A stretch of DNA of 64,000 nt from Planctomycetota bacterium (GTDB lineage Bacteria; Planctomycetota; GCA-002687715; CAIWVZ01): assembly GCA_044222185.1 (NCBI GenBank), contig JBGANV010000010.1, positions 32,001-96,000 on the forward strand, given 5' to 3'. The notes under the pieces are model-generated. The model did not search any database, was not told where the DNA came from, and saw only the letters and a program-made list of their open reading frames with translations. Position numbers and translations under genes: made by a program. Shown here piece after piece: positions 1,459 through 64,000 of the stretch. Within the stretch, counting starts at the first letter, position 1. Each line of letters begins with the position of its first letter.

Positions 1459-3174
1459 TCAGACGATCAGATCCACGCGGCCGACGGCCGAGCGCGCGGA
1501 CGTGGAAACGGAATGGCGGGTACGCGCCTCGGAACGCGACGACGTGCGTTCGGCCGCGCCCGCGGTTCGCGCACCGTCGTGGTTGCGCGGGTCGGCTTGC
1601 GAGCCCTGGCCTCCGCGTGCCTGTACATCCAACGAGGCGAGCGAGAGCCCGCTCAAACTGAGGCTCTGCTCCAGGCGCGGGAGCTCGTTCTTCAAGGCCG
1701 CCGCCACGTCGCCCCGCTCGGCGAGGAAACGGACGACGAGCCCCTCCGGGCGTTCGGTGAGGCGCACGTTCAACCGCCCGAGTTCGGGCGGTGCGAGGTC
1801 GATCCTGAATTCGCGCTTGCCCATGGACACCTCGCCGTGGAGACGCTCGAGGAGCTTCTCGACGGTCGCGGGCCAGGTCGATGCGCGGTTGGGAGCGGCG
1901 GACGGCGTCGCCGATTCCGCGGCGACGCGCGTCGTCGGTACGGGCCCGGTCGTCGGCGCGCGGTCGGCCGTGGGTGCGATGGCAGACGTTCGCGACGGCG
2001 TCGCGGAGTTCGTCGTGGGGAGCGTTCCTTCCCCCTGTGAGCCCGAGTCGATCGTGGTTTTCGGATCGGCGACGACGCCATTCACGACGCGCTCGGGAGG
2101 CAGGTCCTTCGTCGCGGGTGGCGGAGCGACGTCGTCGCTCGCGCTCGGTGCAGTGGTATCGGCCTTCGCCGCGCCGACTCCGCCGACCTTCTTCGCCGGC
2201 TCGCGCACGGATCGCGCCGGAGCCGGGACGAGCGCGGCTCGAGCTGCGGACTCCTGCGCTGCCACCGGCTCGACGGGGCGCGTCGTGGTGGGGGAGGCGT
2301 CGCTCGAACTCGCGGGCGCGACGTCGGGCCGCTGGCGGGTCGTCGGCTCGACCGACTTGTCCGGAGCGTTCTCCGACGGCGCGGCATCCGCGACCGCCGG
2401 CTCCGTCGGCGCGGGCTTGGGGTCGGCCGTGGGCGTCGGGCGCCCTTCCACGGGGCTCGCGCGGTCGGGCTGCGCCGGCGTCTTCGCAACCGCGACCTGC
2501 GACTCGACCGGATCGGGCTCATCGGTCGGATTCGAATCGGGCGCGACCACGGTCGCCTCGACGAACGCCGGGCGCACCTCGGGACGAACCCGCGGCGTAG
2601 CCGTCGAGAGGGCCGTCGGCGATTCCGTGTCGTCGGTCTGGTCGCTCGCCGGATCGACCGGGGCGACCGGGACGACGATCTGCAGCGGCTCCGTGGAGAG
2701 CGCCTGGGCGGCGGCGAGCGCCGCGGCGTCGACATCGGCAGATGGTCCCGCGTCGCTCGATGGCGTCGCCGCTACCTGGGACTCGCTCACGTCGTCTGCG
2801 GCGTCGGCCTCCGACGCGTGGGGGTCCTTCGGGGCTGCGACGACGTCGGCCCTGCCGGACGTGCCGTCCTCCGCGGTCTCGTCCTGAGTTCGAGCCTCGC
2901 GTGCCTCCAATTCGGGTTCGCCGCGCTCCTCCCTCTTGGGGTCGACCCCGCGTGCAGCGCGTGTCCGCGGTGCCGGTTTTTGCGACGCCTGGGGTGCCTT
3001 TTCGGCCGCCGCGACCCGTCGGTCGGGGACTCGAGCCGGTTCTCGGGTCGCCCGGGCCAGTTCATGGGCGAACGACGCGCCGGAATCCGGCGCAGCGTCC
3101 GGCGTGGGGCCTACGGTTTTGGGGTTTGGAGCCGAGAAGAGCTTGGCGAGCGTGGAAGAGACGAGGTCGGTCAT
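1459..3174 (-). CDS. fliK: Flagellar hook-length control protein FliK
   Basis: Long P/A/T/E-rich region followed by a C-terminal T3S4 domain (FRIDLAPPELGRLNVRL...LKNELPRLEQSL). Start placed at ATG 3174 because the track start (3213) overlaps the sigma54-like motif. Confidence 0.88.
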   Translation of the reverse strand: MTDLVSSTLAKLFSAPNPKTVGPTPDAAPDSGASFAHELARATREPARVPDRRVAAAEKAPQASQKPAPRTRAARGVDPKREERGEPELEAREARTQDETAEDGTSGRADVVAAPKDPHASEADAADDVSESQVAATPSSDAGPSADVDAAALAAAQALSTEPLQIVVPVAPVDPASDQTDDTESPTALSTATPRVRPEVRPAFVEATVVAPDSNPTDEPDPVESQVAVAKTPAQPDRASPVEGRPTPTADPKPAPTEPAVADAAPSENAPDKSVEPTTRQRPDVAPASSSDASPTTTRPVEPVAAQESAARAALVPAPARSVREPAKKVGGVGAAKADTTAPSASDDVAPPPATKDLPPERVVNGVVADPKTTIDSGSQGEGTLPTTNSATPSRTSAIAPTADRAPTTGPVPTTRVAAESATPSAAPNRASTWPATVEKLLERLHGEVSMGKREFRIDLAPPELGRLNVRLTERPEGLVVRFLAERGDVAAALKNELPRLEQSLSLSGLSLASLDVQARGGQGSQADPRNHDGARTAGAAERTSSRSEARTRHSVSTSARSAVGRVDLIV

Positions 3175-61438: not shown

Positions 61439-62054
61439 TCCGGAGCGAGCGCGCGGTGCGCGGCTACCATGGGCCCCATGGTGCGTCCTGAACGCGAACG
61501 AAGCCGAAGCCGCGGAATGCGGCCGAGGATCCGTTCGCGATGCCGTGTTGAACCTGCGGGTGTGAGTCCCGTCGCGGTAAGCGCCGCAGCGCCGCGTAGC
61601 GGATCCCGGATGCGAGGAGAGATCCGAAGCATCGAAGCGGGATGTCGAGAGCCCGGCGTGGACCGTAAGGCCTGCGCGCGGGGAGCCACGTCTTGGGCCG
61701 AATGCGAAAGCGTGAACCTTGCAGGCTCGTGACATTGGTGCCCGAAAGGGCGGGCAAGCCGAGCCGGTCATGTCGCGGCGAAGGCAACAGACCGCGCCCA
61801 GAAGCGGAGCGGCGCAGGCATCTCCCGAGGTATTGATAACGGCACGAGATGACCGCTCGACACGGAACAGGAGAGACCCTACCCGGCGGACCTCGTCAGC
61901 CGCAGCCGCTTCCTATGAGCCACAAGGGAAAGGGGAGCGAGTCGGGAGGGAGTCCGAGGAGCCCGTAGTACTGCCGACATCGGAGACCAGAACTCCGACG
62001 GAGGGAAGGGGCTCTGCTTTTGTTGCGTCCGCGGACGGGGGTAAGCGCGCGGGC

Positions 62055-63419
62055 ATGGCCGCAAGGCCCAACAACCCCAAAGAAGAAGCGCGAGAACTCC
62101 AACGCGGACTCTTCATGGCTGCCAGGCGCAGCCCGGTGCGGCGCTTCCACGCTCTCTTCGATCGGATCTCCAGGAGTGACGTCTTGGAGGAGGCGTGGCG
62201 GCGGGTTCGGAGCAATGGTGAAGCTGCCGGCGTCGATGGGGAAAGCCTCAAGATGATCGAGCAGAAGGGCGTCGAGGGGTTCCTCGAGGGCCTCGCGGCG
62301 GAGTCAGGAGCGGGACGCTATCGCCCAAAGCCGGTGAAGAGGCGAGACATCCCGAAGGCGGACGGGAAGCAGCGGTCGCTTGGGATCCCGACGGTGCGAG
62401 ATCGGGTGGCGCAGATGGCCGCGAAGATCGTGATCGAGCCGGTCTTCGAGGCCGACTTCAAGGACTGCTCCTTCGGGTTCCGTCCGAGAAGAAGCGCAAC
62501 CCAGGCGTTGGAGGCGATCCGCCTGCTTGGGGGTCGTGGACACCGCTTCGTCGTGGATGGCGACATCAAGAAGGACTTCGACAGCATCGATCAGGATCTC
62601 CTGATGGAGCGAGTCGCACCACGGATGTGTGATCGGCGTGTGCTCAAGCTGCTGTGGCAATGGCTCACGGCGGGCGTGATGGAGGAGGGCGAAGTGAGGA
62701 CATCCGTGGCGGGGACACCGCAAGGCGGCGTGATCTCACCGCTGGCTGCCAACATCTACCTGCACGACCTCGACAGACGCTGGCATGGCGAATGCGGGCA
62801 CCTCGGGAAACTCGTGCGGTACGCGGACGACTTCGTCGTTCTCTGCCGTACGAAAGCCGCGGCGCAGTCGGCCATGGCGTGGCTGAGAGAGGTGCTTGGG
62901 TCGTTGCGCCTCGAACTGCATCCGGACAAGACGAAACTGGTCGAACTCGGAGTGCACAAGGAAGGGTTCGTGTTCCTCGGCTGTCATCTGCGGTTGGTGC
63001 GCTCGGTGTTCAAGAACCGTGCATACCGCTTCCGGTGGCCGTCGCCGCGGGCCATGAACTCGATCCGAACACGCATCCGAGAGCTGACCGATCGCACGCG
63101 ATGGGCATGGAGGCAGGACCTCGACGCAGTCGTCGCGGGCCTGAACCCGGTCCTTCGCGGGTGGGTCCCTTTCACGCCGAAAGGGTGGGCTCCGTTCAGA
63201 GTGAAATCACCAGCATCGGAGAAGTTCCAGGAGATCGATCGGTACGTCTGCGAGCGGCTCACGAGGCTGCGGGCAGGATGGCACCGCAAGATCTGCCGCA
63301 AGGACCGACCGAGTCAGTTCCGGCTGAGGGACTGGTCACACCGCCGCTTCGTGCAAGAACACGGACGTCACAAGTTGCTCGGGACCGACCGTTACCCGGG
63401 AGGAGCGAACGCCGCATGA
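62055..63419 (+). CDS. ltrA: Group II intron reverse transcriptase/maturase (no endonuclease domain; possibly degenerating)
   Basis: RFHALFDRI, AGVDG, IPK.DGK.RSLGIPTVRDR, SFGFRP, GTPQGGVISP, VRYADD, FVFLG, LNPVLRGW. Start at ATG 62055; upstream sequence is ribozyme domains I-III. Confidence 0.93.
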   Translation: MAARPNNPKEEARELQRGLFMAARRSPVRRFHALFDRISRSDVLEEAWRRVRSNGEAAGVDGESLKMIEQKGVEGFLEGLAAESGAGRYRPKPVKRRDIPKADGKQRSLGIPTVRDRVAQMAAKIVIEPVFEADFKDCSFGFRPRRSATQALEAIRLLGGRGHRFVVDGDIKKDFDSIDQDLLMERVAPRMCDRRVLKLLWQWLTAGVMEEGEVRTSVAGTPQGGVISPLAANIYLHDLDRRWHGECGHLGKLVRYADDFVVLCRTKAAAQSAMAWLREVLGSLRLELHPDKTKLVELGVHKEGFVFLGCHLRLVRSVFKNRAYRFRWPSPRAMNSIRTRIRELTDRTRWAWRQDLDAVVAGLNPVLRGWVPFTPKGWAPFRVKSPASEKFQEIDRYVCERLTRLRAGWHRKICRKDRPSQFRLRDWSHRRFVQEHGRHKLLGTDRYPGGANAA

Positions 63420-63431
63420 GAAAACCATCGG

Positions 63432-63524
63432 GAAGCCGTGTGCGGGAAACCCGCACGCACGGTTTGAATGGGGGCGACAGGAAACGGAGCTACGAAGGCC
63501 ACTGCGCCTGAGGTCCATCCCATG
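63432..63524 (+). ncRNA. Group II intron domains V and VI
   Basis: GAAGCCGTGTGCGGGAAACCCGCACGCACGGTTT is a 34-nt domain V, followed by the GGGGGCGACAGG...CCTGAGGTCCATCCC stem. Confidence 0.92.
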
Positions 63525-64000
63525 AAGCGCCTTCTTTTCCGCACGGCCGGCGAGTCCCACGGCATGGGCTTGCTTGCATTCATCGAAGGGCTTCCGTTCG
63601 GGACACCGATCGACGTGCCCTTCATCGACGCCGCCCTGCGTCGGCGCCAGGGAGGCAAGGGGCGGAGCCGACGGCAGCAGATCGAGACCGATTCGGTCCG
63701 GGTCTTCGCGGGGTGCAAGCGGGGCCGCACGCTTGGGGGGCCCGTCGCGCTCTGGGTGGGCAACAAGGACGTGCGGATCGACGAGTACCGCAGGATCACC
63801 CGCCCACGCCCAGGTCATGCCGACCTGGCCGGCGCGATCCGCTTCCTCACGACGGACGTTGCCGACGTGATGGAGCGCGCCTCGGCACGGGAGACGGCGG
63901 CTCGGGTCGCCGCCGGCGCGCTGGCTCAATCCGTGCTCGACGAGGTGGGGATCCGGACCTTCGCCTGGGTCCGGGGGATCGGCGGGATCGATCTCGCGGG
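63522..64000 (+). CDS. aroC: Chorismate synthase (5' part; runs off the window end)
   Basis: Not in the ORF track. Manual translation: MKRLLFRTAGESHG...RRRQGGKGRS...RPRPGHADLAG...ERASARETAARVAAGA. Confidence 0.96.
   Translation, partial: MKRLLFRTAGESHGMGLLAFIEGLPFGTPIDVPFIDAALRRRQGGKGRSRRQQIETDSVRVFAGCKRGRTLGGPVALWVGNKDVRIDEYRRITRPRPGHADLAGAIRFLTTDVADVMERASARETAARVAAGALAQSVLDEVGIRTFAWVRGIGGIDLA

Follow-up and report, generated by a model that had tools for sequence, protein, structure and literature searches.

A group II intron at the start codon of aroC and a lineage of relatives predicted to end in NUG

In a 64,000-nucleotide stretch of DNA from a Planctomycetota bacterium (contig JBGANV010000010.1, positions 32,001 to 96,000; the whole stretch is hereafter called the window), a group II intron lies directly behind the start codon of aroC, the gene for chorismate synthase, and a second ATG would form the last three nucleotides of the intron itself. 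How can a mobile intron occupy the first codon of a working gene, and what leads it to such a site? Comparison with related introns points to an answer that combines the two ends of the element with the promoter in front of it. In particular, we consider it likely that the element is intact, probably mobile and a member of a distinct lineage whose proteins lack an endonuclease (En) domain, and that this lineage integrates directly after start codons that have a -10 box 6-8 nt upstream.

The aroC locus and its intron

The left junction of the intron reads CCCCATG (its ATG at 61478-80) followed by GTGCG (61481-85), that is, ...GGGCCCCATG and then GTGCG, and the right junction reads GAGGTCCATCCCATG (63522-24) followed by AAGCGC, within the longer stretch ...CCTGAGGTCCATCCCATG. 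Excision of the 2044 nt between these junctions (61481-63524) gives ATG-AAG-CGC (MKRLLFRTAGESHG), and the Chorismate_synt match (Pfam, 6.4e-45) lies in the frame opened by the ATG at 63522. The original prediction, made from the letters of the window, had described an intron that targets the start codon and rebuilds both a Shine-Dalgarno (SD) sequence and an ATG at its own 3′ end; its coordinates, both junctions, the 2044-bp deletion that restores ATG-AAG-CGC, the hairpin, the GAGG motif and the candidate branch point A63517 were all re-read as it had given them.

The host genome contains a single match to aroC (one query) and one full copy of the intron. In the three same-family genomes that have the gene, aroC is uninterrupted, as the original prediction had anticipated for relatives; it starts in all three with ATG AAA CGN (MKRLGFRTAGESHG), 12-17 nt past the stop codon of the same upstream gene, and the intron therefore sits exactly at the aroC start codon. 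Further, in an independent activated-sludge metagenome (run X2), contigs span both junctions with the intron in place. The X2 copy, at the same site, carries C63516T, which changes CCA to the lineage consensus CUA around the branch A, and 25 differences from the window are listed for it across 2.5 kb.

Judged by its sequence, the element is a real and intact group II intron (Table 1). Its 5′ end, GUGCG (61481-85), conforms to the GUGYG of bacterial group II introns; domain V (D5) is followed by a domain VI (D6) with a bulged A; the protein that the intron encodes (IEP), which has reverse transcriptase (RT) and maturase regions, lies in domain IV; and exon-binding sites 1 and 3 (EBS1 and EBS3) pair with the corresponding intron-binding sites (IBS1 and IBS3). 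Its 3′ end departs from the rule, being AUG in place of the terminal AY (A and a pyrimidine) of bacterial group II introns. The alignment of D5 to RF00029 includes the AGC of the catalytic triad, the bulged A63517 of D6 is the candidate branch point and the 8th nucleotide from the final G of the intron, and an SD-like GAGG in the 3′ strand of D6 (63510-63513) is separated from the ATG by 8 nt (63514-21). The minimum-free-energy structure of 63431-63545 is non-canonical (z -1.5) and is uninformative on the gating of aroC by D6 folding that the original prediction had raised as a possibility. The IEP matches the Pfam families RVT_1 (1.9e-34) and GIIM (2e-4; 21.7 bits, with a curated cut-off of 23), shows no HNH or En match in the Pfam scan, and is 52-65% identical to the other IEPs of its lineage. 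A full-text literature search found no link between the Rfam model name group-II-D1D4-4 and a named bacterial class. The intron boundaries used throughout come from the comparison of the lineage together with the EBS1-IBS1 and EBS3-IBS3 covariation described below.

Table 1. Features of the aroC intron and of two related fragments; positions are those of the window unless another record is named
Feature	Position	Strand	Details
-10-like hexamer, TACCAT	61465..61470	+	7 nt upstream of the aroC ATG; putative leaderless promoter
Host aroC start codon, ATG	61478..61480	+	last 3 nt of the 5′ exon; IBS1 = CATG, 61477-61480
Group II intron	61481..63524	+	2044 nt, 5′ GUGCG ... 3′ CCCAUG; Rfam matches
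Domain I core	61554..61668	+	Rfam RF02003 group-II-D1D4-4, 57.4 bits, gathering score 49, E 4.9e-11
EBS1 hairpin	61763..61779	+	GCCG-GTCATGTCG-CGGC; loop GUCAUGUCG; CAUG 61769-61772 pairs with exon CAUG
Candidate EBS3	61833..61833	+	U in the motif GGUA-U-UG; partner is the first 3′-exon nucleotide, A63525
Intron-encoded protein (IEP)	62055..63419	+	454 aa, RT and maturase, YADD present
Domains V and VI	63431..63524	+	Rfam RF00029 Intron_gpII at 63431-63523, 46.4 bits, gathering score 40
Intron-borne ATG	63522..63524	+	closing triplet of the intron, reading in frame into aroC codon 2
aroC (chorismate synthase) 3′ exon	63525..64000	+	continues beyond the window end; Pfam PF01264, 6.4e-45
Fossil 1, J5/6 (junction of D5 and D6) + D6 + ATG	G000 C7:640107-640175 = L002 about 1501-1569	-	opens the gene of a 420-aa HutI-like amidohydrolase
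Fossil 2, J5/6 + D6 + ATG	G000 C7:263026-263092 = L003 about 1501-1567	-	opens the gene of a 495-aa signal-peptide protein

Junctions, pairing and splice register across the lineage

Searches with the window IEP against species genomes (80 loci) and with an alignment of six lineage IEPs against metagenomes (80 loci) gave 160 loci, and a profile of the last 100 nt located D5 and D6 in 139 of them. Within the lineage, 65 3′ ends are readable (62 by the profile; the window, L120 and L181 by eye), and all 65 are NTG, as ATG in 60 and as GTG in five, with the form CUACC(A/U/C)(A/G)UG or a close variant; four more clade members have lost their 3′ ends at contig ends. None of the 55 outgroup introns, which comprise 54 sister-clade introns (mostly from Bacillota) and a second intron of the host genome, all with full IEPs, has an NTG end, and all 55 end in CU(C/U)UA(C/U). 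On a FastTree phylogeny of 131 full-length IEPs, from which 30 partial IEPs were excluded, a single change between the AY and NTG states suffices: a 66-row clade (support 85) holds 62 NTG introns and the four with cut ends, with L120 (NTG) branching beside it, while a 60-row sister clade (support 99) holds the 54 AY introns and six with unreadable 3′ ends. The second intron of the host genome (L004, G000 C1:30776-34251) is a complete group II intron, unrelated to that of the window, whose domain I belongs to the Rfam type found there. Its ends are normal, GUGCG...CUAU, and its insertion site is one unit of a ~170-bp tandem repeat rather than a start codon.

The 5′ junction is readable in 53 loci, the 5′ part being absent from 16 of the 69 lineage loci. 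Wherever at least three exon bases are present, the 5′ exon ends in a start codon (52/52; ATG 41, GTG 9 and TTG 2). The readable junctions of the lineage thus support the proposal that homologous introns directly follow host start codons and carry such a codon at their own 3′ ends. Across 50 loci, the 5′/3′ codon pairs are ATG/ATG (37), GTG/ATG (7), GTG/GTG (2), ATG/GTG (2) and TTG/ATG (2); the two codons are unequal in 11 of the 50, which shows that the 3′ NTG moves along with the intron instead of being a duplicate of the target site. The 53 readable introns begin with GUGCG (39), GUGUG (3), GUACG (4), UCGCG (6) or GCGCG (1). A first base other than G is very unusual in group II introns; the introns that begin with UCGCG (L113, L114, L116, L133, L160 and L166) come from several subclades. 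Whole-intron length is 1927-2044 nt in 50 of 51 loci, and L136, at 2800 nt, is ~800 nt longer than all others.

Named hosts are an Embleya strain (Actinomycetota), Acidobacteriota, Planctomycetota and 'Deltaproteobacteria' metagenome-assembled genomes (MAGs). The cultured Embleya sp. NBC_00896 (NZ_CP108777.1, about 1251829-1253800, minus strand) has the same junctions, TACGGT-gcgtcc-ATG then GTGCG ... CTACCAATG then ACC, and its intron (L201) is an apparently intact member. The gene table of that record, which is incomplete, has no features in the L201 stretch. In the Acidobacteriota MAG that carries L031, a second copy (L034) has a stop codon in its IEP and a downstream frame of only 25 codons, and is a decaying copy. 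Overall, the lineage is large, distinct and apparently undescribed, and we allow a modest chance that it has been described earlier.

An unbiased covariation scan, in which every exon position was set against every alignment column in 50-52 introns, identified which bases of the target are read. The EBS1 hairpin is conserved in all 53 aligned introns, with compensatory changes in its stem and a loop of the form N-U-C-A-U-G-U-C-N. Exon position -3 covaries with intron position 291 (window 61771), as A:U 41, G:C 4, G:U 5 and U:U 2, so that 50 of 52 are paired, and loops with CAC (L115, L145, L183 and L187) occur only with GTG exons (4/4), of which they account for four of nine. Exon position -4 covaries with intron position 292, as C:G 42, U:A 3 and G:U 2 with four unpaired, so that 47 of 51 are paired with two Watson-Crick types. 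These two columns bear out the assignment of the CAUG hairpin as EBS1 in the original prediction. The scan found no partner columns for exon positions -5 to -9, and no IBS2 partner was detectable.

Moreover, the first base of the 3′ exon covaries with intron position 353 (window U61833, in the motif GGGGUA-N-GG); with the intron base written first, the pairs are AT 10, TA 6, CG 16, GC 3 and GU 3. At this EBS3 column, strict Watson-Crick pairs, of all four types, are found in 35 of 50 introns (0.70), with 12 of 50 unpaired; none of 300 shuffles reached 0.70, the maximum for the best column being 0.56, and several of the 12 misfits have an extra adjacent base that is able to pair. IBS3 is by definition the first nucleotide of the 3′ exon. 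Since EBS3 pairs with the base after NTG, the 3′ splice site would lie after the G, the intron would run GUGCG...AUG, and the product would be ATG/AAG, which is the register originally proposed and leaves no frameshifted product. In this register, the distance from the branch A to the intron end is 6 nt, as in the outgroup, and 7 nt in the window. The introns of the lineage are thus predicted to end in UG, not AY, and the RNA would read only ~5 nt by pairing, EBS1 with C-(A/G)-U-G and EBS3 with the first base of codon 2.

The position of the EBS3 covariation, on the base after the G and not on the G, also bears on a register in which the intron starts one base earlier (G-GUGCG or GUCGCG), ends in AU and splits the start codon as AU/G. 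Such a shift would let the six UCGCG introns begin with G and would agree with the Rfam D5-D6 model, which ends at CCCAU (63523); as this G is invariant at both junctions, ligation would give one and the same product in either register. However, the EBS1 helix runs through this G, with C:G in all members, the outgroup's distance of 6 nt between the branch A and the intron end is matched only by an end in ...AAUG, and the GTG ends (5/65) would have G, not A, as their penultimate base. The shifted register has a precedent in the stop codon split by the groEL intron, as recounted where PMC12584367 treats that intron, and we nevertheless judge it quite unlikely.

GUG 3′ ends are found in two of the four introns with CAC in EBS1 (L145 and L183) and in two of the 47 CAU introns whose 3′ ends could be read; these small numbers hint that the terminal codon tracks the target start codon or EBS1.

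Target genes, the -10-like box and fossil intron ends

Among the 36 loci with at least 60 downstream codons, 28 have an in-frame open reading frame (ORF) after the NTG that is at least 60 aa long or open to the contig end, compared with 9/36 and 18/36 in the control frames. Downstream ORFs of at least 40 aa match Pfam families in 21 of 34 cases, often from profile position 1-5, and the families include RmlC, NRDE/TANGO2, QueC, Maf, CoA-transferase III, DUF72, DUF2062, an RF-1-domain protein, AroB, a sulfatase with a signal peptide and a FitA-like antitoxin. In total, the relatives occupy at least 17 different Pfam-identified gene families, always at the start codon; the targets are many unrelated genes that have their position in common. 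The single full copy in the host genome would also suit an ordinary homing intron specific to aroC, with the symmetry of its two ATGs a coincidence, and this reading, to which we assign practically no weight, is refuted by the NTG ends across the lineage (65/65), the start-codon 5′ exons and the diversity of target genes.

The sites also have an upstream element in common. TAnnnT precedes the start codon in 42 of 48 distinct 5′ flanks of at least 30 nt, with a spacer of 6 nt in 24, 7 nt in 14 and 8 nt in four, and is found at any other offset in at most two flanks; the second base before the hexamer is preferentially G, which is also a trait of extended -10 elements. Intron-less genes carry the box as well: aroC has TAATCT or TAGCCT, 8 nt and then ATG in 3/3 relatives, the HutI-like gene has TAGAAT, TACCAT or TACGGT and 6 nt in 4/4 orthologues, and the gene of the 495-aa secreted protein has TAAGAT or TAGGAT and 6 nt in 2/2 orthologues, and the box therefore belongs to the genes, not to the intron. 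Only T1, A2 and T6 of the box are conserved and its spacer varies, which is the signature of a sigma-70-type -10 element and not of base pairing or fixed protein contacts. In the host genome, box sites form a modest peak, with 127-186 per spacer at 6-9 nt and 34-119 elsewhere, and the 42/48 is therefore an enrichment and not background. A box ~7 nt before the start codon would imply that transcription starts at that codon, and the targets of the lineage look like leaderless genes. Further, the pairing at exon position -4 involves a base that would be absent from a leaderless transcript, which argues that recognition takes place on DNA. A motif search did not find the 16S 3′-end motif in the assembly.

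The box could be a mark of survival instead of recognition: insertion of low specificity might occur at any CATG/N, with only those copies persisting that lie at start codons abutting a promoter, the promoter itself going unrecognised. Pairing over ~5 nt, with no partner column for exon -5 to -9, is what such insertion would look like, and the donated NTG would make start-codon sites uniquely harmless, while persisting copies would be transcribed with the host gene still expressed. The loci without a long downstream ORF (8/36) cut both ways, as they fit chance insertion, yet six of them have a readable 5′ flank and the strict box is present in four of these six. Moreover, the box is found in 42/48 flanks although box-type genes are a minority in the host genome, and the intergenic and insertion sequence (IS) sites that are given as typical of bacterial introns in the pertinent passages of PMC12584367 and PMC4424553 are not seen here. 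Survivorship alone is in our estimate unlikely.

Two fragments of ~65 nt in the host genome, 81-82% identical to the window intron (nhmmer E 1.4e-7 and 8.5e-4), indicate what can become of such an insertion (Table 1). Neither has D5, and both retain the GAGG before the ATG with a spacing like that of the window. The 420-aa gene has no in-frame start as an alternative to the fossil ATG, and a stop codon lies 5 codons upstream; elsewhere, orthologues of the fossil genes are box-type genes without the fragment. The most plausible reading of the fragments is that they are fossils, left where introns had inserted at the start codons of leaderless genes, in which the 3′ end of the intron would now serve as the translation start. 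Of the evidence at hand, they speak most strongly for a terminal ATG that can function in the absence of splicing. The idea that the donated start is usable is thereby upheld, each of the two fossils opening an intact gene (420 aa and 495 aa). In two other host records (Embleya and the L031 genome), solo fragments of D6 and NTG were not found, and only full copies are present. The SD, which had been taken for a feature of the intron, is in turn not lineage-wide: GGAG, GAGG or AGGA lies 5-10 nt before the terminal codon in 19 of 65 3′ ends, mostly in the window's subclade.

The fossils, which keep ATG and GAGG in the absence of EBS1 and D5 and serve intact genes, are difficult to explain if it is the ribozyme that requires the terminal NUG, as it might to pair with EBS1 at one of its steps, and the start codon is no more than a side effect. 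It is true that A and G at the third-last position can both pair with the U of EBS1, and the distribution of GUG ends (2/4 CAC introns, 2/47 CAU introns) would agree with such a role. However, most members end in AAUG or UAUG, where only 3 nt could pair, and the link between CAC and GUG comes from tiny numbers; a purely ribozymal reason is very improbable.

Proposed mechanism and comparison with known introns

In the reading that we prefer, that of an intron lineage integrating behind promoter-proximal start codons, the host promoter would fire at or next to the 5′ NTG, transcribing the intron with a 5′ exon of only ~3 nt, and splicing would regenerate the original leaderless mRNA. Spliced RNA would present the host NTG followed by codon 2, and unspliced RNA the intron NTG followed by codon 2, in the same reading frame; when splicing fails or the intron decays, the intron NTG would keep the gene translatable, and in the window's subclade the GAGG in the 3′ strand of D6 could assist as an SD site. 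The fossils would represent the last of these states, with the intron NTG as start, fixed in evolution. For targeting, our preferred guess is that the ribonucleoprotein (RNP) uses a feature of the promoter or initiation complex, such as the single-stranded non-template strand, in parallel to the terminator hairpin and short IBS1 of class C introns. Splicing, transcription starts, translation of intact copies from the intron NTG and the targeting mechanism are what we infer in this scheme, from an anatomy, junction rules, covariation, target architecture and fossils that are read directly in the nucleotides.

Several points weigh against it. Contigs of three DNA runs and one RNA run contain no joint across 61481-63524 and no spliced RNA, and the one RNA run yielded only conserved intron pieces (contigs), an outcome that speaks for neither side; a near-isogenic empty aroC site was not found, the nearest genomes in the set being ~65% identical in AroC. 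The support of the NTG clade is moderate (85, not starred) and comes from FastTree only. Six of the 53 introns start with UCGCG directly after the host NTG, and no register fits them cleanly. Eight of the 36 loci (L034, L116, L129, L136, L140, L148, L159 and L167) are without a long ORF, six of the 48 flanks have near-misses or no box instead of a strict TAnnnT, and the promoter link could be survivorship rather than targeting. Further, the SD is present in 19/65 only and the NTG adjoins the D6 helix, so that translation of unspliced RNA is a prediction for most members.

It is said of bacterial group II introns that they persist by keeping clear of genes. This populous lineage does the opposite, occupying the first codon of working genes (aroC, aroB, rmlC, queC and maf), and it would remain harmless because its non-canonical 3′ end carries a duplicate of the start codon. 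Should the link to promoters prove mechanistic, it would be a new way for a retroelement to find DNA, and nature would provide a design for integration close to promoters that needs ~5 bp of programmable pairing. The fossils illustrate how mobile introns may rewrite translation initiation, from leaderless to SD-led, and the UG 3′ end tests ideas on the choice of 3′ splice sites; the cultured host Embleya sp. NBC_00896 makes the whole model testable. For bacterial introns, a 2015 review names, in its portions on target choice, only three target specificities, namely homing sites, terminators and attC (PMC4424553). It is possible, and we suggest it tentatively, that the present lineage has a fourth, in which the RNP finds leaderless genes by being directed to the place where their transcription begins, and the intron brings a start codon and over time converts these genes into leadered, SD-dependent ones, a change to which the two fossils point. 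Such an RNP would perhaps reverse-splice into the non-template strand exposed in the open promoter complex; the introns of one subclade would supply an SD as well, and those of another perhaps a -10-like box.

The only precedent found in the literature is a monophyletic IIB1 family at start and stop codons, reported by Michel et al. (2007) as cited by Gomes et al. (2025; PMC12584367). According to the portion of Gomes et al. that deals with this clade (Avi.groEL and EcKTE56.groEL), a 5′-subterminal insertion of 300-700 nt (subdomain Ia) is present in all members, the RT belongs to the CL1 lineage and carries a C-terminal En domain, the EBS-IBS pairings are canonical, long and include EBS2a, the hosts are proteobacterial, and retrohoming is gene-specific; the groEL intron splits the stop codon between positions 2 and 3, and its first G turns UAA into UAG (PMC12584367). 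The two groups are alike in that the insertion lies in or next to an initiation or termination codon, the intron end completes a translation signal, a principle already known from the groEL introns, and the intron is expressed from the host gene promoter, as predicted here. In contrast, the window intron has only 73 nt from its 5′ end to the Rfam domain I match, which leaves no room for subdomain Ia, and the distance from the 5′ end to the GGGTG motif is 29-78 nt in the 34 relatives measured, in introns of 1.93-2.04 kb. Its IEP has RVT_1 and GIIM only, without En, and the lineage shows only EBS1 (4 bp) and EBS3 as detectable pairings and targets many unrelated genes. As set apart by the clade's description in that portion of PMC12584367, the lineage is not the IIB1 start/stop-codon clade. 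The kinship to the Azotobacter groEL introns to which the original prediction had pointed thus fails, for lack of subdomain Ia and En and with hosts beyond the proteobacteria and many target genes; its interpretation is partly supported, with a correction on the SD and the family and an extension by the promoter link and the fossils.

Class C introns insert after Rho-independent terminators or attC and have a short IBS1, as summarized in the relevant parts of PMC12584367 and PMC4424553. The present lineage resembles them in its short IBS1, in the lack of a detectable IBS2 and in targets defined by a functional DNA motif rather than by gene sequence; it differs in that the motif is a -10 box with a start codon in flanks without a hairpin, domain I is of the Rfam D1D4-4 type, and the 3′ end is NUG. 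The sister clade (Paenibacillus, Brevibacillus, Cohnella and Lachnospiraceae) has En-less IEPs that are 42-50% identical, the same Rfam D1D4-4 domain I, and a very similar D5 and J5/6, whereas its introns end in CU(C/U)UAC, with a canonical AY in 54 of 54 readable cases and no start codon after it. RmInt1, a class D intron, uses EBS1, EBS2 and EBS3 to home to a long target located on an IS; the lineage shares with it an IEP without En and the placement of EBS3, which in domain I follows downstream of EBS1. To our knowledge, RmInt1-type introns have no association with start codons. Full-text searches, whose coverage did not extend to Michel et al. (2007) and the supplementary class tables, found no literature that connects group II introns with leaderless genes or with a start codon at the 3′ end, and Toro & Martinez-Abarca (2013) do not mention start codons.

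In a 30-row subclade of the lineage (e.g. L156, L159, L165, L170, L173, L174, L181 and L186), an SD-like motif is found in 0/28 members, and the 3′ strand of D6 carries (T/C)AnnnT 6-7 nt before the terminal ATG; strict TAnnnT occurs at a spacer of 6-8 in 9/28, and AnnnT at a spacer of 6-7 occurs 29 times. The intron end of this subclade may imitate a -10 box and recreate a leaderless start, or, in an A/T-rich region, the likeness may be due to chance. In the window, CTACCATG at 61464-61471, 6 nt upstream of the occupied start codon, resembles the lineage 3′-end consensus CTACC(A)ATG and could be a trace of an older insertion or a chance occurrence. It overlaps TACCAT, the sequence read as the -10 box, and the ATG within it (61469-71), which starts 9 nt ahead of the host ATG, shares the reading frame of aroC (MGPM-KRLL).

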